Below the pieces are notes generated by a model. That model worked only from the letters and a program-made list of their open reading frames with translations. It had not been told where the DNA came from and searched no databases. A stretch of 60,481 bases of DNA. It comes from Myxococcales bacterium (GTDB lineage: Bacteria; Myxococcota_A; Polyangia; Polyangiales; Houyiibacteriaceae). The position numbers and the translations under genes were made by a program. The stretch lies in assembly GCA_024643985.1 (NCBI GenBank), contig JAHELW010000003.1:1-60481 (forward strand), written 5' to 3'. This document shows positions 1,239 to 43,029 of the stretch, piece after piece (position 1 is the first letter of the stretch; each line of letters begins with the position of its first letter).

Positions 1239-1244
1239 GCCGGA

Positions 1245-1329
1245 GAATCGGTCGCGACGCCCGTGCTCGCGAGCGGGACCCGGTCGCTCCGCACCCCCCA
1301 CTCGCTGTGCTGGGCATCCCGACCGATTC
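1245..1329. other. GC-rich stem-loop just downstream of the CBS gene
   Basis: GAATCGGTCG (1245-1254) is the reverse complement of CGACCGATTC (1320-1329), with further inner pairing. No U-tract follows. Confidence 0.4.
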
Positions 1330-1343
1330 CCCTGCTCACCCAA

Positions 1344-1872
1344 GGGACAGTCTCCCCCCTCCAGACCCCCCTGATTCCAACTACTTACGACCCACACCGC
1401 GAAAACCCGAATTTCGCCCCGCATACGGGGCACGGAAAAAACACGACGCGGGCCTGCGCGGAGCGGGAGCGCCTGCAAATGCGGCCCGTAAGATTGGAGA
1501 TGTAGGCCGCGCACGCGCTCCCTCGGGCTGCGCGCCAATCGCCGGTGGTTGCTGGTGTGGCGATTGTCACTTGGCACGTCCGCTCCGACCCACGTCGTGT
1601 TTTTTCCGAGCCCCTAGGCAGACCGTTTTGCCCCTACTCAGGCGGGCGGGATGCAGGCGGAAGCGCGAGCCCGAAGGGCGAAGCCCGGCGCGCATGCGCC
1701 GCCAAGCCCGAAGGGCGCGGAGGGAGGATTACGGGTGGGGGTGGGTGGGTCGGATATAACTAAACCAAACCACGCCCCCAACTCAGCAACCATCCCCCAC
1801 GTCATCCGGGTTTTCGCGGTGTGGGTCGTAAGTGGCTGAAAAGAGGCGGGTTTTGGAGGGGGAGAATGTCCC
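1344..1872. mobile_element. Non-autonomous MITE/REPIN-like element, long copy (66-bp imperfect terminal inverted repeats, 397-bp structured interior)
   Basis: Arms 1344-1409 and 1807-1872 are reverse complements at 55/66 positions. The inner 27 bp (ACTTACGACCCACACCGCGAAAACCCG) match perfectly, and the termini read GGGACA...TGTCCC. The same arm recurs at 40546-40685. Mobility is inferred. Confidence 0.65.
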
Positions 1873-4800
1873 CTAGAGCCATTTTTGGATGTGCATGCCT
1901 AGGGCGGCGGGTCTCATGGGGGAGCGGTCTTTCGGGCGCACTCGGAATCTCAGCTCGTGACCGCCGCTTGCCTGCACCGCGAAGGCGCCCCGCCAGGTGC
2001 TGCGGTCGTGGTTGCCCTCGCCCTCGAAGGGAACCACGAGCCGGGTGGACAGATCCTGCATGCGACTGCCGAACGTCACGACTGCCTCGACGTCGAGCTC
2101 CCTTGCATCGAGCCCAGGGTGCTGAAGGCTGACCTCCGCGGACACGTTGGTGCCTACGACGACCTCGTCGCCGCTCAAGCCGCCAAAGCGGACGCTTTCC
2201 ATCGCGATGTTGTTCCAGTGGGTGCGCATGTCCTCCGCCAGATCCGCGAGTGCAAACAGCGGACGGTAGTTGCTGTCGCGAAGCGCGACCGCGTCTTGCA
2301 TGGCCGGCTCGTAAAACATGTCCGCATAGTTCGTCACCATTCGGCGAGCCGAAAAGCGAGGGATGATGCTCGACATGCTCGCCTTCATGCGTTCCACCCA
2401 CGCCACGGGCACGTCTTCCTGGTTCCGGTCGTGGTACATGGGAAGAATCTCACCCTCGAGGAGCGCCATGGTGGCCGCGCGGTCGTAAGCGCTTGGATCG
2501 TGGATGGTTGCGGGCGGGAGATCGATCACCCAGCCGTTGTCGCCCCGGTAGCCCTCGAGCCACCACCCATCGTCGACGCTCAGATTCAAGCACCCGTTCA
2601 TGGCCGCCTTCATTCCCGACGTCCCGCTCGCCTCGAGCGGCCGAGTGGGCGTGTTGAGCCAGACGTCGCAGCCCGCGACCATTCGGCGGGCCTCGTCGAT
2701 CGAGTAGTCCTCGAGGAAGATGACCCTGCCGGCGAGATCGGGATGTTTGGCCGCCTTGTAAACCCGCTGCAGCAGGGCTTGGCCGTGGCCGTCCGCCGGG
2801 TGTGCCTTCCCGGCGTAGACCATCATGGCGCCGGGGTTGCTCCCGAGGAGCTTGGCGAGCCTCTCGGGGTCGCTGAGGAGCAGATCCGCGCGCTTGTACG
2901 GTGCGAAGCGACGTGCGAATCCAATCAAGAGACGATCTTCGTCGAGCTGGTCGAGGACGTCCCGCAGCAACGAAAGATCTTCCCGCCGGCGACTCCAGGT
3001 CTGCGTCAGGTGTTCCTTGAGCCACTCGATGAAGTCGGCGCGAAGCTCGCGGTGGATCGACCAGATCTCACTGGGATCATGCTCGCGCAGCCACTCCCAC
3101 TGAAAGCGATCTTCGATGCTATTGCGCCAATCGTGGCCCATCTGCCGCTCGAAGAGCCTTTGCCAGCGCGGGGCCACCCAAGTCGAGACGTGCACGCCGT
3201 TGGTGATGTGGGTGCTTGGAACGTCGTCGGAATCATCGAGCTCCGGATAGAACTGCCGGAACATGTGGCGAGCAACCTCACCGTGCTTCGCGCTGACTCC
3301 GTTGATGCGCTCCGAGTTCCTGACGGCAAGCGCGGTCGTCCCAAACTCGTTCGGCGAGCCGTTCGGCGTGTGTCCCATCGCCATGAGACGCGGCCAGTCC
3401 ATTCGCAGCACCCGTTCGAAGCGTGCGAGATACGGTCGCACCATTTCCTCTGGAAAATGGTCGTGACCGGCGGCGACCGGCGTGTGCGTCGTGAAAACCG
3501 TCGTGTTGCGGATGTACTCCAGCGCTTCTTGTGACCGGAGGCCATGCCTTTGAATCAAGTGCGCGGCCCTTGCGATCAGCAAGAATGCGCTGTGGCCTTC
3601 GTTCATGTGAAAAACGTCCGGGTCGATGTCGAGCTCCGTCAACATCTGGTAGCCACCGAGGCCGAGGATAATCTCCTGTCGCAAACGGTGGGCCAAGTCG
3701 CCAGCGTAGAGGCGATTCGTAATCGCGCGATCTTCCGGTCGGTTTTCGGGGAGGTTGGTATCCAACAGAAACAGCGGCACCCGCCCGACCTGGAGCTGCC
3801 ATGCGGAAACCTGGACCTGACCTGTCGGCAGGGGCACCGTCACTTTGAGCGGCGCGTACTGCCCCGCCATCACCGGCCGAAAGGGTGGGCTTCCAAAGTC
3901 GTTGGTGTCGCCGAGGTCCTCCTGTCGACCGTCACGATCGATCATCTGGTGGAAGTAACCGTCGTGGTAGGCAAGCCCAACGGCGCACAATGGGATCCCC
4001 AAGTCGCTCGCGGCCTTGAGATGATCGCCTGCGAGGATTCCCAGGCCGCCCGAGTAGAGCTTCAGAAACCCGGCGATGCCGAACTCCATGCAGAAGTACG
4101 CAATCCTCGGATCTTCAACCTTGGTTCCGTCGACCATCTCAGCATGAAAGCGCCTGACGGCCTCGACGTACTCCTCGTCGATCGCCAAATCCATCAAGCG
4201 GTCGGGCTTGACTTGGTCGAGCAGCGCGTGTGGGTTCTCTTTGAGCCTGAACCAGAGCTCTGGGTCGATCCGCTTGAAGAGCGAAGCGACCTCGGGGTGC
4301 CATCGCCACCACAGGTTGGAAGCAATGTCCTGGAGCGGCTGGAGCTCGTCCGGCATCGCGTTCGCGACCGTGAACGTACGGGTGTACGGCGCCGCTACCT
4401 CTCCCTCCTTGGCGGGCGGCTTCACGAACAGGCCGAAGACTCCAGAGCTGTCGCTGCTGGGTGCCGCCGAGGGCACGCTCAGCCGTTCCATCGGGAGCTC
4501 TTTCCGCCGCGCCGCACCGGCAGCGAGGGCGCGGTGGTGGGCGTCCTCGTAGTGCTCCATGAAGTTCGACCAGTCGGTCAGCTCGGCCGTGCGCAGCGAG
4601 GCCGCGCGCAGTGAGTCCCGGCGGTCGGGAGTCAGGTCGATGAATTCGAGCAACGCCTTCTTCAGCGAGTTGCTGACCTCTTCGAAGGGCACGCCTTCAC
4701 GCGCGAGGACGCGGACTCCAGTGCTGTTGCCATCGCCCTGCGCCGCGACCCACCGACCGAAGCCCGCTCGATCGGTGGTGATCGCGGGAACGCCGAAAGC

Positions 4801-6126
4801 CACGGCCTCGAGCGGGGTGTAGCCCCACGGTTCGTAGAACGAGGGAAACACGCCGAGGTCCGCGCCCGGAAGCAGGTCCCAGTACTTGTGCCGGATCAGC
4901 GGGTCCGTTCCGTCCAGATAGATGGGAACGTGTACGACGTGGACCTTCGCGCCAGGGCGGTTGTCGATGCCGAGCGCGTTCAGCTGGTTCGTAATCGGGT
5001 CGTTGGGTTCGTCGACAAGGTCGTGAGTACATCGCAGCGGCGACGTCGACCCTGCGCCGTAAGCGCGATCCCAGAGCTCACGCTTCGGTTCGGCATGTCC
5101 CGCGGGAAGCATCGCGTACGCGATGACTCTCTTACCATCGCGCGCGGCCAGATCCTCCGCGAGGCTCGACGCCGCGTCGAGATAGACATCGACGCCCTTG
5201 TTCACGTACTCGTAGCGGCCTGCCAGAGCGAACACGAGAGTGTTTTCTCGATCGTACTGGTCCCCCGTCGTCAGCTCCGCGAGCTTGAAGAGCTCCTCGC
5301 GGGCGCTCTGCCGCTGCTCCTCCGTGACGGGCTTCGCCCCGAAACCGTTCGGTAGCACGACGTCCGGCCTTCTGCCGAGGAGGTGCTCGCACTCGAGTGC
5401 CGTGATTTCGCTCACCGTCGTGAACACGTCGGCCTCTCGGGCGGCGACGGTTTCCATGGAATGCTTCGAGGAGACCTCGAGCTCTTTGGCTGCCGATTCG
5501 GGGTCGATGCTCTCGAGAGATCGGTAAAAATGCGGATCGGCGCGACGGCCTGCAAGCGACCGCCCGAGCATGGTGGCGTGCGTCGTGAAGACCGTACCGA
5601 TGTCAGGCGCCGCCGTCTGCAGATGCAGGATCGCGCCCGCCGACATCCACTCGTGGGCCTGCACGAGCGCGGTCTGCCGCGCCGGAAGAAGAAACCGATC
5701 GCGAATGAGCTCGATGATCACGCCCGCGCCGTACGCAAACAGGACCGGGTCGTAGTAGTCCCATGCACCGAAGAGCGAATCGAGCGCATACCGCTCCCAG
5801 TACGTGCCGAGGATTTCGTCTTTTCGCGAGTAGAGGTTGGAGTGGTTGATCAGCAGACAGCGGGGCTCGCCTGGAACCAGCCAACGGCCCATTTGTACAT
5901 TCACCTCGTGATCGCGGAGCGCGAGCTCGAGGTCGGGGTTCCAGACGTCTGACCGAAACTCCGGTGCCACGCCTTCCGTACGAGGAACGTCAGGGCCGAT
6001 CGCGATGTAGCCGTCCTCGCCGTGCCGCTGCTGAACCTCCGGAACGCGGCTTGCCAACACGGTGTGGATTCCACCCACCATGTTGCAGACCTCCCAAGAG
6101 ATCTCGAAGAACACCGACCTGCTCAT
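1873..6126 (-). CDS. glgP: Fusion of GT3-type glycogen synthase (N-terminal) and GT35 alpha-glucan phosphorylase (C-terminal), about 1417 aa
   Basis: N-terminal FEISWEVCNMVGGIHTV, AHEWM, VFTTHATMLGR, FPSFYEPWGYTPLE (GT3). C-terminal YFCMEFG, YSGGLGILAGD, HMNEGH, FARRFAPYKRA, EASGTSGMK (PLP lysine). The start at 6126 overlaps the upstream stop (ATGA). Confidence 0.9.
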   Translation of the reverse strand: MSRSVFFEISWEVCNMVGGIHTVLASRVPEVQQRHGEDGYIAIGPDVPRTEGVAPEFRSDVWNPDLELALRDHEVNVQMGRWLVPGEPRCLLINHSNLYSRKDEILGTYWERYALDSLFGAWDYYDPVLFAYGAGVIIELIRDRFLLPARQTALVQAHEWMSAGAILHLQTAAPDIGTVFTTHATMLGRSLAGRRADPHFYRSLESIDPESAAKELEVSSKHSMETVAAREADVFTTVSEITALECEHLLGRRPDVVLPNGFGAKPVTEEQRQSAREELFKLAELTTGDQYDRENTLVFALAGRYEYVNKGVDVYLDAASSLAEDLAARDGKRVIAYAMLPAGHAEPKRELWDRAYGAGSTSPLRCTHDLVDEPNDPITNQLNALGIDNRPGAKVHVVHVPIYLDGTDPLIRHKYWDLLPGADLGVFPSFYEPWGYTPLEAVAFGVPAITTDRAGFGRWVAAQGDGNSTGVRVLAREGVPFEEVSNSLKKALLEFIDLTPDRRDSLRAASLRTAELTDWSNFMEHYEDAHHRALAAGAARRKELPMERLSVPSAAPSSDSSGVFGLFVKPPAKEGEVAAPYTRTFTVANAMPDELQPLQDIASNLWWRWHPEVASLFKRIDPELWFRLKENPHALLDQVKPDRLMDLAIDEEYVEAVRRFHAEMVDGTKVEDPRIAYFCMEFGIAGFLKLYSGGLGILAGDHLKAASDLGIPLCAVGLAYHDGYFHQMIDRDGRQEDLGDTNDFGSPPFRPVMAGQYAPLKVTVPLPTGQVQVSAWQLQVGRVPLFLLDTNLPENRPEDRAITNRLYAGDLAHRLRQEIILGLGGYQMLTELDIDPDVFHMNEGHSAFLLIARAAHLIQRHGLRSQEALEYIRNTTVFTTHTPVAAGHDHFPEEMVRPYLARFERVLRMDWPRLMAMGHTPNGSPNEFGTTALAVRNSERINGVSAKHGEVARHMFRQFYPELDDSDDVPSTHITNGVHVSTWVAPRWQRLFERQMGHDWRNSIEDRFQWEWLREHDPSEIWSIHRELRADFIEWLKEHLTQTWSRRREDLSLLRDVLDQLDEDRLLIGFARRFAPYKRADLLLSDPERLAKLLGSNPGAMMVYAGKAHPADGHGQALLQRVYKAAKHPDLAGRVIFLEDYSIDEARRMVAGCDVWLNTPTRPLEASGTSGMKAAMNGCLNLSVDDGWWLEGYRGDNGWVIDLPPATIHDPSAYDRAATMALLEGEILPMYHDRNQEDVPVAWVERMKASMSSIIPRFSARRMVTNYADMFYEPAMQDAVALRDSNYRPLFALADLAEDMRTHWNNIAMESVRFGGLSGDEVVVGTNVSAEVSLQHPGLDARELDVEAVVTFGSRMQDLSTRLVVPFEGEGNHDRSTWRGAFAVQASGGHELRFRVRPKDRSPMRPAALGMHIQKWL

Positions 6127-7325
6127 ATACGAATCCGCTTCTCCGCCGGGGCTAGAACCGAGAGCTTCAAATCTTTCAGGACGTTCATGTAATGAATGAA
6201 AGCATCGTAGGGGCCCTCGTAGGGGCTGAAATAGTCGTGCACCTCCCCGTCGGACGCGGATTTCGTGGCCATGTAATAGAAATGGTCGGAAGTCTGCAAG
6301 CGTCTCCACAAAGCGAGCAAATGGGAGTTGTTTCGTTGCCGAATTGCCTCTCCCAGCGAGTAGATCTCCGCAAGGGCCCGCTGCTGCATTTCATTGCCGC
6401 GCCAGGCGCTGATGTCGCGGGCCTCGTCGGCCCACGACACCGTGCGGTGAAACGGGAGCTCTCCGAGGGCAGGGTAGCGGTCGATGGCCTGGCTCGGCGT
6501 CAGGATGTCCCAGTGAGGATGCGTGAAGAGCAGATCCGGCAGGTGCTCGAGGAACTCGAATATTCCCGTCTCCTTCCACTGATGCTCTCCAAAGGTCTCG
6601 TAGTCCATGAAGAGATTGATCACATCGCCGGCGCCGCTGTGCCCATGCACCCAGCGAGCGAACTTGTCGGCCGTCAGTGGGTACTCGTTCCACGCCCGGT
6701 TCGAGAAACGAAACGCGATGTCGTCCGACAGCTTGTAGTTCTTCGTCAATAGCCGCATCTCGCGACCCGCAACCCGATAGACGAAGTTCGGGCTGCGCCA
6801 GTCCAAGACGTCATCTGCGCCTTCACAGATCATCCCGTCGAAACCGAGGTCCGCGATGAGCTGCCCGATCTGGTCATTGTAGATGAGCTCGGTATTCCGA
6901 AAGATCCGGGGCGTTTGGCCGAACTCTTCCTCGACGAGCTTCATCTGCAGATCGATCTGCGCTTTGTACTCTTCCTCGTCGTACAGTGCTGCGAGGCTGT
7001 GATAGTAGGTTTCCGCGACGAACTCGACTGCGCCGGTCTTCGCGAGGCGAACGAAGCTGTCCATGACCTCCGGCACGTATCGCTTCATCTGCTCGATCGC
7101 GACTCCCGTGACGGCGTACGAAATCCGAAAGCGGCCGTCCGTGCGCTCGATCAATCGAAGCATCGATTCGTTTGCAGGCAAGTAGCACTTGTCGGCGACC
7201 TTTCGCATGACCTCGGCGTTGAGCTTGTCGTCGAAGTATTCGTGGTCGCGGCCCACCTGAAGCGCGCCGTAGGGCTTCAGTCGATACGGTTGGTGGACTT
7301 CGAAATAGAAACAGACCGACGGCAT
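6123..7325 (-). CDS. Glycoside hydrolase family 57 (alpha-amylase type)
   Basis: MPSVCFYFEVHQPYRL, ETYYHSL, FRNTELIY, LSDDIAFRFS, FMDYETFGEHQW, LQTSDHFYYM. The real start is ATG 7325, not the ORF-track start 8159. Confidence 0.9.
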   Translation of the reverse strand: MPSVCFYFEVHQPYRLKPYGALQVGRDHEYFDDKLNAEVMRKVADKCYLPANESMLRLIERTDGRFRISYAVTGVAIEQMKRYVPEVMDSFVRLAKTGAVEFVAETYYHSLAALYDEEEYKAQIDLQMKLVEEEFGQTPRIFRNTELIYNDQIGQLIADLGFDGMICEGADDVLDWRSPNFVYRVAGREMRLLTKNYKLSDDIAFRFSNRAWNEYPLTADKFARWVHGHSGAGDVINLFMDYETFGEHQWKETGIFEFLEHLPDLLFTHPHWDILTPSQAIDRYPALGELPFHRTVSWADEARDISAWRGNEMQQRALAEIYSLGEAIRQRNNSHLLALWRRLQTSDHFYYMATKSASDGEVHDYFSPYEGPYDAFIHYMNVLKDLKLSVLAPAEKRIRI

Positions 7326-36059: not shown

Positions 36060-36105
36060 TCGGAGCGGGTGAAGAGATTCGAACTCTCGACCTCGACCTT
36101 GGGAA
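36060..36105 (-). repeat. att site (displaced 3' half of tRNA-Gly)
   Basis: TCGGAGCGGGTGAAGAGATTCGAACTCTCGACCTCGACCTTGGGAA, identical to 39154-39199. Confidence 0.92.
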
Positions 36106-36195
36106 TACTCTCTCAGCCTAGAACACCATTCGGGAAATCCAACAACATCAACCACATGAAGTCCTGCGGCGTTGCGTGCCGTCCCGAGGTGTCCT

Positions 36196-36220
36196 GTGGA
36201 AAGTGGAAGAATTCGTGGAA
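36196..36220 (+). repeat. Putative integrase arm-type sites (left)
   Basis: GTGGAA at 36196, 36203 and 36215. AAAGTGGAA-N6-GTGGAA recurs at 39064-39084. Confidence 0.55.
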
Positions 36221-36288
36221 TATTTGGCTTCGACGTTCAGAGGGTCGAAGCCTGACGCTTAGCCCAACTGCGGTGCGGTTGGCGCCCC

Positions 36289-36597
36289 TCAGGGCACGGG
36301 CGGATCGCTACCGCGTGCTCGACTCCAGACGGCAGCGATGAGAACCTCCCTCGCTTCGCGGTTGACCGAATAGAAGACTGCGTAGGGTGTGCCTTCGATC
36401 AACAACCGCCGCACGCCAGGCAACTGGATATCGTCGCATGGTCGCCCGAGACCTGGCATCCGGGAGATGTGGTCACTTGCTGCGCTGAATGCTTCTTTGA
36501 AGGTCGCTCGGGCAGCCGGCCGGTTCGCAGCCCACCAAGCCTCGAGCTCGCGCACTTGCCACTCCGCTTCGGGCGAAATGCGGACGCGGAAGCTCAC
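36289..36597 (-). CDS. Type II toxin, ParE/RelE superfamily
   Basis: 102 aa; RVRISPEAE...MPGLGR...GVRRLL...YAVFY...IAAVWS. GTGA overlap with the antitoxin. Confidence 0.85.
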   Translation of the reverse strand: MSFRVRISPEAEWQVRELEAWWAANRPAARATFKEAFSAASDHISRMPGLGRPCDDIQLPGVRRLLIEGTPYAVFYSVNREAREVLIAAVWSRARGSDPPVP

Positions 36598-36812
36598 AGC
36601 TCTTTCATGAAATCTTCAATCGGTCGGCTCTTGCCCGCTTCACCTTGCGCCAGGCCACGCCGCACGGATGCCCGAAGTCTTTCGAGGTCGTCTTCGCTTA
36701 GGCTCTCGAAGCCATCCTCGGCGCGAACGGCGTTCAGAACAGTACGCACTGCGTCGAGCTCGTCGTCGGCCAGTTCATCGATCAATGCATGAATGTCGGA
36801 CCGGGTTCCCAT
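36594..36812 (-). CDS. Cognate antitoxin (ParD-like, acidic)
   Basis: 72 aa, immediately upstream of the toxin; ends in RRGLAQGEAGKSRPIEDFMKEL, a typical antitoxin tail. Confidence 0.75.
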   Translation of the reverse strand: MGTRSDIHALIDELADDELDAVRTVLNAVRAEDGFESLSEDDLERLRASVRRGLAQGEAGKSRPIEDFMKEL

Positions 36813-36898
36813 TTCGCTCAGCTTAAGCCCGGTGGGACTGCTCGTCCAGGCTGCGGAACAGATCTGACAGCTCTCTCATTTCCACCCTGGGTCGGGCT

Positions 36899-37078
36899 TG
36901 AAGCACACTGGCTCGTCCTGCTCTTTTCTGACACACGCCGCATCTTCTTGCGCAAGAGTGGTTCGGTCTGACCCACCCTGCCGCAAAATGCGTCATCACG
37001 AGGCAAAGGGGGTCGCTTCGCTTCATATTTGCGCAGTAAGCTCCAGAATTCTTCATCGTGCGTCAAAAGGAACCGGAC
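36899..37078. repeat. 10-bp-phased degenerate array 1, (TG-NNN-CA-NNN) x18
   Basis: Counted by eye over 18 units: G at position 2 in 16, C at position 6 in 16, T at position 1 in 12, A at position 7 in 12. Confidence 0.75.
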
Positions 37079-37092
37079 TTTGTTCGGGCAAG

Positions 37093-37119
37093 GTGGAGTT
37101 TTGTTTAACAAAACTGCAC
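37093..37119. repeat. AT-rich palindrome
   Basis: AGTTTTGTT-T-AACAAAACT (37097-37115), extendable with GTG/CAC after one mismatch. Confidence 0.75.
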
Positions 37120-37162
37120 GGCTCTCGCGTCGGGTCTTCGCCCCAAGCTCGGCGGTGAGGGG

Positions 37163-37436
37163 CGCGCTCAACGCCTTCGGCTTATTCGCGCGAGGCGGCG
37201 GCCTAGAGCCCGGTCTGACGCGTGTCCTCGTGTGCGCCGGCCCGCGACGGCAGGTTTCGAATCGGAGAGTCCAATGGCGAGAAACGCTCCACCGCTTCGC
37301 AGAACTCAGGACGACCCGCAACGGCATCTGCCACCATCACGGTCGGCTGGTAGGTCGCATGGATCTGCCAGTGCGGGAGAAAGAAGTTCTTGCCCTTGTT
37401 TGGTCCGCTGCGAATAAGCCGAAGGCGTTGAGCGCG
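37163..37436. repeat. Perfect 27-bp inverted repeat enclosing 220 bp
   Basis: CGCGCTCAACGCCTTCGGCTTATTCGC (37163-37189) and GCGAATAAGCCGAAGGCGTTGAGCGCG (37410-37436). Confidence 0.9.
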
Positions 37437-37488
37437 GCAAGCGGGGATTGGGACATCTTCGATGTCCTACAATCCCACATCTTGAAAA

Positions 37489-37618
37489 TGTCGCACTTCG
37501 CTCTGAACTGACTTCTCTTGTCGCCTTCTGCATCGTTTTGGTTCTTCGTGAAGCACAATGCGTCGTTTCACTCCAAGAAGCTCCAAAGTGCGTCACTTCG
37601 TCGCAGAAAACGCCAAGA
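37489..37618. repeat. 10-bp-phased degenerate array 2, (TG-NNN-CR-NNN) x13
   Basis: 13 units: TG at positions 1-2 in 8, G at position 2 in 11, C at position 6 in 11. Same register as array 1. Confidence 0.7.
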
Positions 37619-37766
37619 GGTGAGAGCTGGTGACAGCCTCGCGTGGCACTTCTTGTCGCTGGATGACGCACTCGCGTTCCAAGCACTTCCTGCTCGCGCA
37701 ACTTTTCGGGGTGCAAAGCCGATAACAGGGGATGAGCATGAACGCGATTCCCAATCACGAGCTTCG

Positions 37767-38222
37767 ATGACGGCGTCATGGGACGACGATCCATGGCTCG
37801 ACTGTCGCAGCGCTGGAGCCTTTCTCGGGCTAACGCCCTCCGGTGTCCGATCGCTCGTCAACCGTGGTGTGTTGTTTCGTCGCTCCACCCTCGACCGCTG
37901 GATTATCGATGGCTGCCGGCGCTATGCTCCTCAGCGGTACGCAACGTCCGGGACGGGAGGAGCGCATGAGCAAATCTCGGTATCCGGGAATCGAACGCCT
38001 GTCGTCGGGTCGCTATCGAGTGAGAGTGACTTGGAACGATCCGAAGACGGGCAAGCGAAAGGATCAGAAGAAAGTGATTGCCGCCACCAGCATGGCCGAA
38101 GCGAGCTCCCAAAGGGAGTTGCTTCGTACCCGCTTGCTGACGGGCGGCACGACCCCAGAGCACCGTCTTCGCCTTGGCGAATACGCGAGCTCGTGGATGC
38201 GTGGGAAGATTCCCACTCTTAA
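37767..38222 (+). CDS. Excisionase-like HTH (HTH_17/Xis type), apparently lacking the wing; possibly inactive
   Basis: WLDCRSAGAFLGLTPSGVRSLVNRG-VLFRRSTLDRWI lies immediately upstream of the integrase, and its 3' part overlaps the integrase in another frame. Confidence 0.55.
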   Translation: MTASWDDDPWLDCRSAGAFLGLTPSGVRSLVNRGVLFRRSTLDRWIIDGCRRYAPQRYATSGTGGAHEQISVSGNRTPVVGSLSSESDLERSEDGQAKGSEESDCRHQHGRSELPKGVASYPLADGRHDPRAPSSPWRIRELVDAWEDSHS

Positions 38223-39150
38223 GCCCTCGACGCGGGACAAGTACGCGGTGGTCCTGGACCACCATATCCTTCCCGCCTTGGGGGATTACTACGTCGACGC
38301 CATCACGCCGCAAGACGTGCTCCGGTGGCGTGATGCCCAGCATGCCAAGCCCAGCACCGTCAATTCGCGGCTGAGGGTGCTTCGTACGCTCCTCCGGGAC
38401 GCGCAGGCACAGCTCGGGCTGCCCCGGGACCCCTGCGCTCGCGTGAGAACGCTGCCGGAGGAGCCCACGGTCGGAAACCGGCTCAAGCCCGAACAGCTGA
38501 GGCAGGTCCTCGGCCATCTCCAGGAGCATGAGCGACAATGGTATCCGTTGTTTCTCACGATGGCGCTCACCGGCGCTCGCTTCGGCGAGGTCTCGGCCCT
38601 TCAGTGGTCGGACATCGACGAAGACGCCGGAGTGATCTGGATCCGGCGTGCCCAGTCGCAGGGGCGTGTCGGCACGACCAAAACCGGGAAGGTCCGAGAC
38701 GTTCCGCTCCCGCTGCCGCTCATGGCAGTGCTCAAACAGCATCGACAGCGGCTCGTTCGAGACCAGGCACCAGGGCTCTCCGAGGGATTGGTCTTCCCAA
38801 GCCGCGTCGGAACCTACCTACGGAACTCCTCGCTCCGGAAGCCCCTGGGGCGAGCTCTCGAGGCAGCCGGCGTGTCCGAGCGGTTTACCGTTCACGGTTT
38901 CCGCCGAACCTGGAACAACCTGCTCCGCCAAGTGGCGTCGGGCGCGATCACGCGATCGATGATCGGCCACGAGACGGAGGAGATGTTCCTTCACTACTCG
39001 CACATCGAGCGCGATGAGAAGCAAAGCGCCGTCGAACGAGCGCTCGCGCTGGTCGACGGTCCCAAAGTGGAACATCGTGTGGAAGGTTCCCCGCTTGGGG
39101 ACGCCGGCCGGAATGCAGACAGTTCAGAAACCACCCGTAACGACAAGTGA
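37966..39150 (+). CDS. int: Tyrosine recombinase / phage-type integrase
   Basis: N-terminal arm-binding region (GRYRVRV) and core-binding region (STRDKY...HILP). Catalytic R (TGARFGE), K (TKT), HxxR (HGFR), H (IGH) and Y (HYSH) are all present. GGAGG RBS. Confidence 0.93.
   Translation: MSKSRYPGIERLSSGRYRVRVTWNDPKTGKRKDQKKVIAATSMAEASSQRELLRTRLLTGGTTPEHRLRLGEYASSWMRGKIPTLKPSTRDKYAVVLDHHILPALGDYYVDAITPQDVLRWRDAQHAKPSTVNSRLRVLRTLLRDAQAQLGLPRDPCARVRTLPEEPTVGNRLKPEQLRQVLGHLQEHERQWYPLFLTMALTGARFGEVSALQWSDIDEDAGVIWIRRAQSQGRVGTTKTGKVRDVPLPLPLMAVLKQHRQRLVRDQAPGLSEGLVFPSRVGTYLRNSSLRKPLGRALEAAGVSERFTVHGFRRTWNNLLRQVASGAITRSMIGHETEEMFLHYSHIERDEKQSAVERALALVDGPKVEHRVEGSPLGDAGRNADSSETTRNDK
39064..39084 (+). 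repeat. Putative integrase arm-type sites (right)
   Basis: AAAGTGGAACATCGTGTGGAA, with the same 12-bp spacing as the left copy. Confidence 0.55.
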
Positions 39151-39157
39151 TTCTCGG

Positions 39158-39229
39158 AGCGGGTGAAGAGATTCGAACTCTCGACCTCGACCTTGGGAAG
39201 GTCGCACTCTACCACTGAGTTACACCCGC
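39158..39229 (-). tRNA. tRNA-Gly (anticodon CCC), CCA not encoded
   Basis: GCGGGTG acceptor stem pairs with CACCCGC; D-loop AGTGGTA; anticodon arm CGACC-TTCCCAA-GGTCG; T-loop GTTCGAATC; followed by TCCG. Confidence 0.95.
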
Positions 39230-40252: not shown

Positions 40253-40546
40253 ATGACGGACGAGTTTCGGCGAATCAGCCTGATGATTCGGGAGGATCAG
40301 CACCAGCGGCTGTTGGACCTCGGCGTGAACATGAGCGCCCTGATCCGCAGCCTCATCGACGACCATCTGAGCGAATCGAAGATCACGCTCGCGGTGCCCG
40401 AGGAGACGGCGCACCTCTATCGGCAGGTGGTCTCCGACACCGGCAGCACCGACGCGGAGGTCGAGCCGTATCTTCGAGCCGCCCTGAAAACCATGCTCAA
40501 AGACCGAATCGCCCAGCTGCAGACGCTTCACCGAAGCATCGAGTAG
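40253..40546 (+). CDS. Small ribbon-helix-helix-like DNA-binding protein
   Basis: RRISLMIREDQHQRL...NMSALIRSLIDDHL beta-alpha-alpha pattern. Confidence 0.6.
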   Translation: MTDEFRRISLMIREDQHQRLLDLGVNMSALIRSLIDDHLSESKITLAVPEETAHLYRQVVSDTGSTDAEVEPYLRAALKTMLKDRIAQLQTLHRSIE

Positions 40547-40685
40547 GGACACGCAGTGCCCCGCAGACCAGCCTTTTTCCGGTAAGTTGCCACCCACGCC
40601 GCGAAAACCCGGCTCTCGTTGGGTTTTCGCGGTGTGGGTTGTAACCATTTGAAAGGAGGTCGGTTTTCGAGGTGCTGCGTGTCCC
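40546..40685. mobile_element. Short copy (140 bp) of the 66-bp-arm element
   Basis: Arms 40546-40611 and 40620-40685 with an 8-bp spacer; GGGACACGCAG...CTGCGTGTCCC termini; the ACCCACRCCGCGAAAACCC core sits at the same offset as in 1344-1872. Confidence 0.65.
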
Positions 40686-43029
40686 CCTGATTCTTTTTTT
40701 GCTTGGGCTGTCTTGGGGGGTGGCGTACGCGCAGGATCTGGTGGCGCCGAGCGTGCGGTCGCTGCCGGGGATTCAGGTGCCCGAGGGGGTCGACGTGCCC
40801 GAGTCGGGGGTCGTGCAGGTCCGGGTCGCGATCGACGCCGACGGCAGCGGGACCGTCACGAGCTGCGATGCAGGGCGCGTGCTGTGCGATCTCGTCGTCG
40901 ACGCGATTCGGCGCGCCGAGTTCGACCCTGCGACCCGGAACGGGAATCCGGTTCCCTCCGAGGTTGCCGTCGAGCTGAGGGTCCGAGCTCCTCCCACCGA
41001 CGAGGACCCCGAGGCATCGGCCACCGAAACGGTCCTCGAGCCGAAGACCGCCCGCGTCGAAAAGGAGCTGATCTTCACCGAGACCGCTCAGGTCGATGCG
41101 CGCGCGCAGGTTCCGATCAAGCTCCAGCTCGAAGGGATCCGAAACATCCCGGGAACCTTTGGCGAGCCGTTTCGAACGCTCGAGCTGATGCCCGGCACCG
41201 TCCCGGTCGCCAACGGGCAGCCCTACGTGTACGTCCGCGGCGCGCCGCCTTCGGGGACCGTGTACCTCTACGACGACATCCCGATTCCGCTGCTCTTTCA
41301 CTCGGCGCTCGGTCCAGCCACCATTCACCCGGGGTTGATCAAGAGCATTTCCCTCTTTTCGGGGGCGGCGCCCGCGCGCTACGGCGGCACGGTCGGCGGC
41401 GTCGTCGCGGCCCGAGCCCGTCGATTCGACGACGATCGCGTGCACGGCGAGGCCGAGCTCCGGGCTATCGATGCCTCGGCGCTGGTGAACGTTCCCATGC
41501 CGAAGGAAGGCTCGATGACGTTCGCCGGCCGCTACGGCTTTCCCAACCTGATTCTCGGCGCCATCGATGTCGACGCGGACGTGAAGTACTGGGACTACCA
41601 GTACCGCACGGGCGTGGCGATGAGCCCGCGGTCCCGGTTCGAGGTGGTCGCGATCGGGGCACGCGACCGATCGATTTTCGACGCCTCCGATCCCGAGGAA
41701 ACCCTTGCCTTCGACCTTCAGTTCCATCGCATCGACGCGCGGTTCGTCGGAAAGCTCAAACGATGGGACCTCGTCGGGACGATGATGTACGGCTACGATT
41801 TCTCGGACATTCTCGACGTCTCGGGCGCGGCCGTACCGGATGCGCGTGCCGACATCCACCGGTTCGGCCCGAGGTTCTGGGCTGTTTACGGTGCGCGAAA
41901 AGCCCAGCTTCGCATCGGCGGCGACCTGGCGGGTCTGTTCGGGCCGGTGGAATGCGTCGGCGGCGACCAAAACCTCTCGGCGCCATGCGACCCCGAGTTT
42001 CTCGAGAGCCAGACCCGCCGCCTCTTCGGCGGCGCCTTCGTCGATGCAAACGTGTCGGCGCTCTCTTGGCTCGACCTTTCGCTCGGCGTGCGCGCCGACG
42101 TGTGGAACACGGGCGGTCAACGAGATGCGGGCGTCAGCCCCCGCGCCCGCGCCACGTTTCACGCGAAGGACATCGCCGACGTGTTCGTCGGTTGGGGGCT
42201 CGGGGTCCGACCGGCCACCTTTGCAATTCCGCTGCCCGGCCTCGGCGACGTGCCCCTCGAGCCGGGCCTGCAGCATGCAAATCAAACCGAGGGTGGGGTG
42301 CGCTTCTTCCTCCCGCGAAACGTCACCTTCGAGACACGCGCGTACCTCAACGTCTACAGGGACCTTCGCTTCGTCGACGTCTTCACCAACCCCGAGGTGA
42401 CCGTCGATGCCGATCCCAGTGCATTAGCCGTCGCGCCGGTGGCAGTCGGCCTGCTCGACGACTCGGCCGACGGAAGGAGCTACGGTCTCGAGCTGCTCCT
42501 TCAGCGGCCGTTCGACATCGGCGTCTCGACGATCGCGAGCTACACGCTCGGTTTCAGCAATCTCACGGCGTCCGCGGGACCGCTCGAGCCCACCATCCCG
42601 TTTCCGGTTCAGACCTTCGACTACACGCCCTCGTATGACGTGCGGCACGTGATCAACGCGGCGCTCGCGTGGCAAGCCAAGTTCGGGCTGATCCTTTCGG
42701 CCCGGGTGTTCTCTCGATCGGGTCGCGCGGAGGGCTGGCTTTGGCTCGATGAGACCGGCGTCGTGCGGCAGTACGTGCAGCGAATCCCCTGGTTCACGCG
42801 GCTCGACCTGATGGTTGCGTACGAGTGGGCCAAGCCTGGACGCCGCATGCGTATCTCCTTCGAGTGGATCAACGTGACCCAGGCACAGGACGCGCAGCAG
42901 ATCGACTCCACGAACCCCGATGCGCCCCTGGCGTGTCAGTTTCGGTACGGCGAGCCCTCCGAGCCCTGTCCGATTCAGCTCACGACCGCGATCTGGTTTC
43001 CAAACCTGTCGTTTCGCGCGGTGTTCTAG
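40672..43029 (+). CDS. TonB-dependent receptor with N-terminal TonB_C-like domain
   Basis: Signal peptide ending AYA-QD; GVVQVRVAIDADG...FDPATRNG (TonB_C); plug motifs IPGTFGEP, VRG, PARYGG; C-terminal F. Confidence 0.85.
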   Translation: MLRVPLILFLLGLSWGVAYAQDLVAPSVRSLPGIQVPEGVDVPESGVVQVRVAIDADGSGTVTSCDAGRVLCDLVVDAIRRAEFDPATRNGNPVPSEVAVELRVRAPPTDEDPEASATETVLEPKTARVEKELIFTETAQVDARAQVPIKLQLEGIRNIPGTFGEPFRTLELMPGTVPVANGQPYVYVRGAPPSGTVYLYDDIPIPLLFHSALGPATIHPGLIKSISLFSGAAPARYGGTVGGVVAARARRFDDDRVHGEAELRAIDASALVNVPMPKEGSMTFAGRYGFPNLILGAIDVDADVKYWDYQYRTGVAMSPRSRFEVVAIGARDRSIFDASDPEETLAFDLQFHRIDARFVGKLKRWDLVGTMMYGYDFSDILDVSGAAVPDARADIHRFGPRFWAVYGARKAQLRIGGDLAGLFGPVECVGGDQNLSAPCDPEFLESQTRRLFGGAFVDANVSALSWLDLSLGVRADVWNTGGQRDAGVSPRARATFHAKDIADVFVGWGLGVRPATFAIPLPGLGDVPLEPGLQHANQTEGGVRFFLPRNVTFETRAYLNVYRDLRFVDVFTNPEVTVDADPSALAVAPVAVGLLDDSADGRSYGLELLLQRPFDIGVSTIASYTLGFSNLTASAGPLEPTIPFPVQTFDYTPSYDVRHVINAALAWQAKFGLILSARVFSRSGRAEGWLWLDETGVVRQYVQRIPWFTRLDLMVAYEWAKPGRRMRISFEWINVTQAQDAQQIDSTNPDAPLACQFRYGEPSEPCPIQLTTAIWFPNLSFRAVF

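Follow-up and report, generated by a model that had tools for sequence, protein, structure and literature searches.

Paired inverted arms at two loci of the window

We analyzed a 60,481-nt stretch of a Myxococcales draft genome (assembly GCA_024643985.1, contig JAHELW010000003.1, positions 1 to 60,481 of the forward strand; our contig C256), hereafter the window, in which two loci carry pairs of inverted 66-nt repeats, here called arms. A preliminary description, made from the sequence alone, had interpreted the arms as the ends of a mobile element present in two copies, with 397 bp enclosed in copy 1 and 8 bp in copy 2. Direct reading, a repeat search of the window and a covariance model all recovered the four arms where that description had placed them, and the arm coordinates give the same enclosed lengths (Table 1). 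All four arms begin GGGACA, usually GGGGACA once the flanking base is included, and carry ACCCACRCCGCGAAAACCC at a constant offset. The repeat search joined the two arms of each copy: 1344-1412 with 1804-1872 (pair I1; 69 nt, 83% complementary, 391 nt between) and 40546-40610 with 40621-40685 (pair I2; 65 nt, 72%, 10 nt between). A cross pair, I3, matched the copy 1 locus to the copy 2 locus. Run over the whole window with filters off, the covariance model returned exactly four arms, at E-values from 1e-26 to 6e-18, and no fifth arm below E 0.5.

One end of each copy lies on a TAG stop codon, as had been described. Base 1873 is both the fourth G of the copy 1 right-arm head and the G of the stop (1873-1875) of minus-strand open reading frame (ORF) 1873-6309; the first G of the copy 2 left arm is the G of the stop 40544-40546 of ORF 40253-40546. 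No target duplication is visible at either copy, again in agreement with the preliminary description. Folded as single-stranded DNA, copy 2 (146 nt) is predicted to form a single long hairpin of -46.8 kcal/mol (z -8.5), and none of 200 shuffled sequences folded as well.

Table 1. Positions of the arms and associated repeat modules in the window
Feature	Position	Strand	Remarks
Left arm (terminal inverted repeat, TIR) of copy 1	1344..1409	+	Outer end GGGACA; inner conserved core ends at 1408; genome profile E 2e-16; covariance model 80.6 bits
Interior ('cargo') of copy 1, 397 bp	1410..1806	.	Mosaic; 188-nt hairpin module at 1427-1614 (inverted repeat I5), then another module at 1615-1806
Right arm of copy 1	1807..1872	-	Genome profile E 9e-18; covariance model 86.5 bits
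Separate ~100-nt hairpin module	1239..1337	.	Lies after the stop of ORF 474-1238 and before the left arm; belongs to the repeat mosaic but not to the arm family
Left arm of copy 2 (short doublet)	40546..40611	+	Genome profile E 8e-9; covariance model 59.5 bits
Loop between the copy 2 arms, 8 nt	40612..40619	.	
Right arm of copy 2	40620..40685	-	Genome profile E 8e-12; holds a predicted GTG start (40672) and an upstream AGGAGG

The arms form a large family in this genome

The genome is a 3.52-Mb draft in 288 contigs, 80.6% complete and with 64.7% G+C. A 12-base core of the arm occurs in it 114 times. The genome-wide search with the arm that the preliminary description had advised, done with an nhmmer profile built from 111 arms (cut-off E ≤ 1e-3), found 138 arms; together these counts exclude chance. 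Twenty-four arms have a convergent partner next on the same contig, which gives 24 neighbor pairs. In 7 of them the arms are 9-39 nt apart, in 12 they are 142-666 nt apart and in 4 the gap is 1.4-4.4 kb; the remaining pair is an oddity in which the arms overlap. The four widest 'pairs' (contigs C62, C134, C149 and C181) were rejected as single elements and read as two each, with ordinary-looking long ORFs inside, judged by length only. Half of the 90 unpaired arms (45) are directed at a contig end no more than 300 bp away, indicating that the arm repeat breaks the assembly and accounts for many of its contig breaks. About 30 arms are genuine interior singles, with unique sequence next to them. 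In Rfam, the sole match of the window at the gathering threshold was a tRNA, with no family for the arms, and positions 1200-2000 gave only sub-threshold, hairpin-type miRNA look-alikes.

An alignment of 52 arms from this genome and others (A1) revealed a common anatomy. The outer head, GGGGACA, is followed by a run of Cs able to pair with the Gs, then by a variable stretch, a semi-conserved TT-C...CTTAC block and an almost invariant inner core, ACCGCGAAAAC. Conservation of the core is inflated in A1, part of which was gathered by the exact core pattern; the core is also kept in arms found through whole-arm BLAST or through a neighboring Y1 gene (see below). The head hairpin measures ~15 nt, within a conserved unit of 66 nt, and the C run lets slid registers of this hairpin pair almost equally well. 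Heads in other genomes of the form GGGGT...ACCCC, or with a 7-bp GGGACAC/GTGTCCC stem, look re-paired by eye only. Three head sequences account for 135 arms of this genome, GGGGACAT (83), GGGGACAG (28) and GGGGACAC (24). TA stands directly 5' of GGGG at 46 of 133 ends, and the base before TA is variable.

The preliminary description had also pointed to a motif like the binding site of integration host factor (IHF) just outside the core. Its loose form, TTYCAR-N4-TTA, was confirmed by direct reading in three of the four window arms (all except 40546-40611), and TYCAR-N4-TTR occurs at one fixed offset in 95 of 132 arms of the genome. The strict form, WATCAR-N4-TTR, was found in 0 of 132.

In related species a Y1 gene lies between inverted arms

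Among 55 genomes of the genus, 38 have a protein scoring above the cut-off of the Pfam domain Y1_Tnp. We defined one clade with a 227-aa protein of genome G005 as query (54-100% identity). It occurs in 15 genomes, in one copy in 14 of them; G014 has an extra, broken copy. Here the search proposed earlier for a copy enclosing a transposase gene succeeded: inverted arms lie on both sides of the Y1 gene in 13 of the 15 congeners. The other two loci have one arm, one of them stopping at a contig end and the other having no second arm detected at E 0.01. The left arm ends a few bases before the Y1 ORF, and the right arm overlaps its stop. At all 15 loci the gene order is SDR-arm-DJ-1-arm-Y1-arm-malic enzyme, with DJ-1 missing from one. 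We compared the DJ-1/malic-enzyme junction at 30 loci, 11 of them with the Y1 gene. In 18 congeners DJ-1 lies directly beside the malic-enzyme gene, with neither Y1 gene nor arm between, and G017 keeps a single arm there.

Proteins of this clade are 220-245 aa long (~225 aa), with a C-terminal extension. They keep the HUH motif (N-H-V-H, invariant) and the tyrosine of A-Y-[IV]-[ED]-L-N-P. The Pfam Y1_Tnp score is 43 bits, with the cut-off at 23, and NCBIfam gives NF047646, the repetitive extragenic palindrome (REP)-associated tyrosine transposase, as its best model. When solved structures were searched with a Y1 profile, the best relative was E. coli TnpA-REP (4er8, E 2e-6), with ISDra2 TnpA behind it; the same search with the single protein gave no match. 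No TnpB partner was seen in the Y1 loci read.

The window genome has no gene above the Y1_Tnp cut-off, and tblastn there with the G005 enzyme gave two distant matches only (30-31% identity, E about 1e-7), neither adjoining an arm. The DJ-1 and malic-enzyme proteins of the locus had no tblastn match there either, and the SDR query had paralogue-level matches only. Since these flanking genes are missing as well from an 80%-complete assembly, the whole Y1 locus is probably unassembled or unbinned; a 0.7-kb gene between contig-breaking repeats would be expected to drop out of an assembly.

Several further Y1-like genes were seen. Two distant frames of the window genome, C120:2385-2792 and C188:800-1162, fall under the Pfam threshold, with a variant arm 2.3 kb away from the former. 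In congeners, two additional Y1 clades (L089-L095, L097 and L105; L086, L087 and L094) have their own flanking inverted repeats, also starting GGGGACA. One has a different long TIR ending near AAAGATCGCAGCG and the other a short perfect palindrome around GGGGACAGTCCCC; the repeats of both abut TAG or TAA stops of neighboring genes. G014 in addition has five similar Y1 genes of ~236 aa with a basic N-terminal extension (L100-L104), which are multi-copy and therefore insertion sequence (IS)-like, unlike the single-copy clades.

Arm counts follow the Y1 clade across the genus

With the covariance model, run with a ceiling of 86 scored candidates per genome, 47 of 54 congeners have matches to the arm. 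The 15 genomes that carry the Y1 clade have from 6 to at least 86 arms (the latter a lower bound), with a median of 35. The 39 congeners that lack it have 0 to 46, with a median of 5, and all seven arm-less genomes are in this group. Arm counts thus track the Y1 clade, which is supportive rather than statistical proof, as many of the assemblies are incomplete and related genomes are not independent.

The model was also run on a sample of 150 genomes of the order. Matches were found in 13 of 18 congeners, in none of five other genera of the family and, weakly, in three genomes of other families. An exact-pattern scan of species genomes gave at least 32 loci; 42 loci were rescanned in all, 10 of them from BLAST. 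Matching public contigs are labelled Myxococcota, Sandaracinaceae, Polyangiaceae or 'delta proteobacterium' metagenome-assembled genomes. Loci under labels outside the Myxococcota (e.g. Streptomyces, Actinomadura, Bosea) had no arm match or a partial core match (E 0.003-0.009) and were rejected, and an Enhygromyxa-labelled locus had no arm match on rescanning.

Filled and empty orthologous sites

Empty orthologous sites, which the preliminary description had proposed looking for, were found for both copies. At the copy 1 site, 0 of 29 congeners with the conserved gene pair have an arm. At two bare sites the convergent stop codons are 0 and 9 nt apart, and the rest contain other repeat modules or hexamer tandem repeats. 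The lack of any counterpart at 29 of 29 sites marks copy 1, on comparative grounds, as a recent, lineage-specific insertion, which fits its closeness to the family consensus. Long CAGCGY-type hexamer tandem arrays fill the orthologous gap in L057, L070, L077 and L078.

At the copy 2 site, 11 of the 29 congener loci have arm sequence immediately upstream of the orthologous receptor gene: seven have the full pair, and four have a single or a shortened arm. Some of the 11 share the 97-aa gene as upstream neighbor; in the rest another gene takes its place. Four other loci that have this 97-aa gene upstream are empty, and three of them keep a 9-nt spacer that resembles part of the head. No target duplication was found at the complete copies inspected or between filled and empty sites.

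We also compared positions 700-2500 with contigs from four public sequencing runs of four studies. None joins both flanks across copy 1; the 397-nt 'skips' seen in run contigs carry the copy 2 loop, identifying these as contigs of copy 2. Run depth over the repeat sums many copies and organisms and is evidence neither for nor against excision.

Arms adjoin the ends, and in one case the predicted start, of genes

Flanking sequence was sufficient for 133 arms. An open frame of 100 aa or longer precedes 100 of them in the sense orientation and ends within -40 to +90 nt of the head. In 27 of these 100 the frame ends in TAG and the arm begins with the G of that codon; some other frames end within the arm, at positions +7 or +29. 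Of 29 interior single arms, about 23 come after a gene end in the same way. TAG ends 49 of the 100 adjoining frames, compared with 35% of all open frames of at least 300 aa, a modest rise over a baseline that is crude and includes spurious open frames. Because TA precedes GGGG, the repeat frequently provides a TAG stop codon or lies against one, and the supply of TAG stops by REP termini has been published (PMC3733652). No T-run terminator feature follows the hairpins read.

At copy 2 the arm also reaches a predicted gene start. The ORF 40672-43029, encoding a TonB-dependent receptor, has its predicted GTG start and its AGGAGG inside the right arm. At filled congener sites the ATG of the receptor gene comes directly after the arm; the window has CTG at this position, with the longest ORF beginning at the in-arm GTG.

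A long form carries other repeat modules

According to the preliminary description, the element may be able to carry variable cargo. The arms do enclose different interiors, but the interior of copy 1 is not unique DNA, and its modules also occur without arms. The two interior modules and the separate module at 1239-1337 occur at 72, 45 and 37 loci of the genome, respectively, of which 17, 19 and 9 are more than 150 bp from any arm. The 188-nt module 1427-1614, which has 36-nt inverted ends, appears to be an independent repeat family: in congeners, e.g. L068 and L080, it occurs without arms at an orthologous intergenic site. The ~100-nt module, at 28 of its 37 loci within 150 bp of an arm, is also present in congeners L081 and L083. 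In the window it is directly preceded by the stop of a CBS-domain gene.

Four complete elements of the copy 1 type align from one head to the other, with unrelated flanks, and their interiors are at least as conserved as the arms. The same is true of five complete elements of a second long type. The congener loci read are mostly short doublets. The more economical, not proven, reading is that arm pairs and their module content were copied as units in this lineage; alternatively, repeated independent insertion of modules, or recombination among copies, may have made the long forms.

Interpretation and alternatives

We conclude, with a probability of roughly 0.8, that the arms are the TIRs of a TIRtron-type system, in which non-autonomous repeats like REPs or REPINs (REP doublets forming hairpins) are served by a single-copy, vertically inherited HUH/Y1 enzyme similar to the tyrosine transposases associated with REPs (RAYTs), a so-called 'TIRYT'. 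The preliminary description had suggested a protein-recognised end of a non-autonomous element of the REPIN type or the miniature inverted-repeat transposable element (MITE) type. The copy number, the Y1 gene bracketed by arms and the empty sites support that suggestion.

By analogy with TnpA-REP and IS200/IS605, the Y1 enzyme would bind the folded, single-stranded arm and cut beside the head. The excised or copied strand would then be re-joined elsewhere with no target duplication, preferably directly 3' of TA(G). Such a preference would explain the frequent position of arm ends on stop codons of genes upstream. When the loop is short, a pair of inverted arms forms a hairpin doublet of ~145-165 nt, as in copy 2; a pair can also enclose several hundred bases, either the transposase gene itself or, as in copy 1, further repeat modules. 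In this scheme the catalytic role of the Y1 enzyme and its mobilisation of the arms, the site of cleavage, the single-stranded intermediate and TAG as a target are inferred.

Several observations weigh against this interpretation. No Y1_Tnp gene of the clade is present in the window genome, and the association rests on relatives. The Y1 proteins score 57-62 bits for NF047646, for which the curated cut-off is 80. TA(G) stands at only about one third of ends. On fixed columns the head hairpin has no covariation (72.3% paired versus 70.4% in shuffles, 0 compensatory pairs). The ranges of arm counts with and without the gene overlap, from as few as 6 arms with it to as many as 25 without it, or 46 in a 66%-complete genome. 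The interior modules are also found away from arms in this genome and without arms in congeners. Finally, an arm mostly resembles the other arm of its element no more than it resembles arms elsewhere: in only 3 of 15 tested pairs was the partner nearest or within the two nearest, which leaves a tightly co-evolving doublet unsupported.

Other transposable elements could in principle have produced such repeats. A MITE derived from a DDE-type IS or a Tn3-like transposon, whose TIRs also start GGGG, and mobilised in trans by a cut-and-paste transposase, would have long terminal inverted repeats and a variable interior. A 58-aa C-terminal remnant of an IS3-type (rve) transposase does lie directly inside one arm (G000 contig C13, 1258-1431; L043). 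Such an origin is extremely unlikely, however, given that a target duplication is absent at every complete copy inspected, that the window genome has no rve-domain gene (other DDE families were not searched) and that the gene bracketed by arms, in 15 genomes, is a Y1 enzyme. The remnant was rejected as a lead to a parent transposon: its full-length congener homologues have no arm even at E 10. We also think it very improbable that the arm-flanked Y1 gene is an ordinary autonomous IS of the IS200/IS605 type and the dispersed arms its decayed ends. With IS200/IS605 it shares the HUH/Y1_Tnp domain, hairpin-bearing ends, the lack of target duplication and possible insertion 3' of a short fixed sequence, and there is a weak second match to IS200 transposase models and ISDra2 structures. 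Yet the gene occupies one conserved locus in 15 of 15 genomes and is neither dispersed nor multi-copy, being single in 14 of 15 with the extra copy in G014 broken; its ends are symmetrical, true inverted repeats rather than distinct left and right hairpins; the protein has ~225 aa with a C-terminal extension rather than ~130-150 aa; and no TnpB was seen in the loci read.

A different kind of explanation is that the arms are host elements at gene 3' ends (mRNA 3' hairpins, bidirectional terminators or protein-binding sites), regulatory or structural in role and kept by recombination and selection, with the Y1 gene an incidental or historical neighbor. The sense-oriented frame ends before 100 of 133 arms speak for it, as do the very stable predicted hairpin of the doublet, the arms at an orthologous site in 11 of 29 congener loci, the arm that appears to supply the start codon and ribosome site of the receptor gene, and the loose IHF-like motif in 95 of 132 arms. 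It leaves unexplained, however, the 138 near-identical copies, the recent insertion that 29 of 29 relatives lack, the arms that bracket the Y1 gene and the lower arm counts where that gene is missing. Moreover, the hairpins read have no T-run and the arms no Rfam match. We consider this explanation unlikely as an account of the family. Exaptation of some copies is compatible with a TIRtron-type system and is not a rival to it.

A stronger version of the TIRtron interpretation is possible, although we would bet against it: that this genus holds a highly productive TIRYT system of the group-1/subclass-2.1 type, whose enzyme moves any DNA between two 66-nt arms, up to ~470-690 bp, and inserts it directionally 3' of TAG. 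If so, a class until now thought weakly productive or repeat-less would routinely replace or abut stop codons and even donate start signals, and would move its own gene in the TIRtron and, in this genome, other repeat modules. The system would amount to a natural, programmable-looking single-strand 'cargo shuttle' aimed at gene ends, and would be a good model for the birth, expansion and decay of REPIN-like populations after enzyme loss.

Comparison with known systems

The preliminary description called the family undescribed. Its kind is in fact known: the arms fit the TIRtron/TIRYT class, in which a RAYT-like Y1 gene is flanked by long TIRs with a GGGGWSAS motif (Di Nocera et al. 2013, PMC3733652). 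TIRtrons are the long-TIR sister class of REP/REPIN-RAYT systems. As in TIRtrons, the RAYT-like Y1 gene here lies between long inverted repeats rather than short REPs, and the TIRs are members of a repeat family dispersed singly, as dimers and in clusters. Heads of the congeners, GGGGACAC and GGGGTCAC, conform to GGGGWSAS; in the window genome, 52 of 135 heads have the last S, from which the commonest head, GGGGACAT, departs. A further difference is abundance, with 138 arms in an 80%-complete 3.5-Mb genome compared with families termed 'moderately abundant' in the text of PMC3733652.

Subclass 2.1 (RAYT group 1) is characterized by NHVH, YIELNP, a length of ~238 aa and, in the survey's text, no REP-like repeats beside the genes (Quentin et al. 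2018, PMC6006769). TIRYT is probably the same as this subclass, going by the account in that paper. The Y1 proteins here are candidate members of subclass 2.1: their NHVH and Y-[IV]-E-L-N-P motifs, length of ~225 aa and C-terminal extension, as in TIRYTs, agree with Table 1 of PMC6006769. They differ from the genes in that survey, as there described, in being linked to repeats, in 15 species.

REP/REPIN-RAYT (REPtron) systems are known from Escherichia, Pseudomonas and Stenotrophomonas (PMC2817692, PMC8266576, PMC5581495), and TnpA-REP is described as cleaving at CT beside the REP, which has a GTAG foot (PMC8266576). The present family resembles them in a Y1 gene that is syntenic, inherited vertically, present once and flanked by its own repeat, in repeats that lie mostly downstream of genes as singlets and inverted doublets folding into hairpins (seven short doublets here), in the lack of target duplication and in the persistence of repeats after gene loss. 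Like REPs with a GTAG foot, it has a terminus that gives TAG stops (PMC3733652). It departs from them in that the conserved unit has 66 nt, where REPs are palindromes of 20-40 nt; the foot, before GGGG, reads (N)TA and not GT[AG]G; conservation peaks not in the hairpin but at the arm's inner end, beside the gene; and the Y1 protein falls under the NCBIfam REP_Tyr_transpos cut-off.

The mixture of arms with other repeat modules between genes, with a candidate IHF-type site inside, recalls bacterial interspersed mosaic elements (BIMEs). BIMEs are mosaic arrays in which a transposase-related repeat and other short conserved modules lie together between genes, with a possible IHF-type site inside. 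The modules here are far longer than those of BIMEs, being 100-190-nt hairpins that themselves appear to be independent repeat families. BIMEs of enterobacteria are named in PMC3333891.

A literature search found no relevant paper joining RAYT or REPIN with Myxococc-. This string does not occur in the main text of the key papers, of which figure 9 and some supplements of PMC3733652 may list more hosts; the searched supplements of that paper mention neither five myxobacterial genus names nor TIRYT. The kind of system is known, and what is new in detail is the family itself, its host phylum (Myxococcota), how abundant it is, its link to the enzyme throughout the genus and the long form with modules. 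It is a real example, ordinary in kind and unusually prolific, in a new phylum.

TIRtrons and TIRYTs are a known but little-studied form of bacterial mobile DNA, and REP-like systems are here extended to the Myxococcota. The genus amounts to a natural experiment, with one locus that has or lacks the enzyme gene and arm counts, from 0 to at least 86, that follow it. It also offers an old copy position common to many species, a fresh lineage-specific insertion, and a genome in which long copies carrying modules have become so numerous that they shattered the assembly. With these, the link between transposase class and repeat can be tested, and biochemistry gains substrates. On the practical side, the repeats explain contig breaks and affect the annotation of gene ends, as stop and start codons lie inside them.

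Other features of the window

The minus-strand ORF 1873-6309, whose stop is shared with copy 1, encodes a 1478-aa protein in which glycogen-synthase/glycosyltransferase domains are joined to a carbohydrate-phosphorylase domain. A tRNA-Gly(CCC) gene lies on the minus strand at 39156-39229. An exact 46-nt copy of its 3' part is found 3.1 kb away (36060-36105, 39154-39199), and a phage-type tyrosine integrase ORF (37843-39150) adjoins the tRNA gene. The region 36060-39229 thus looks like a small integrated element with att repeats.

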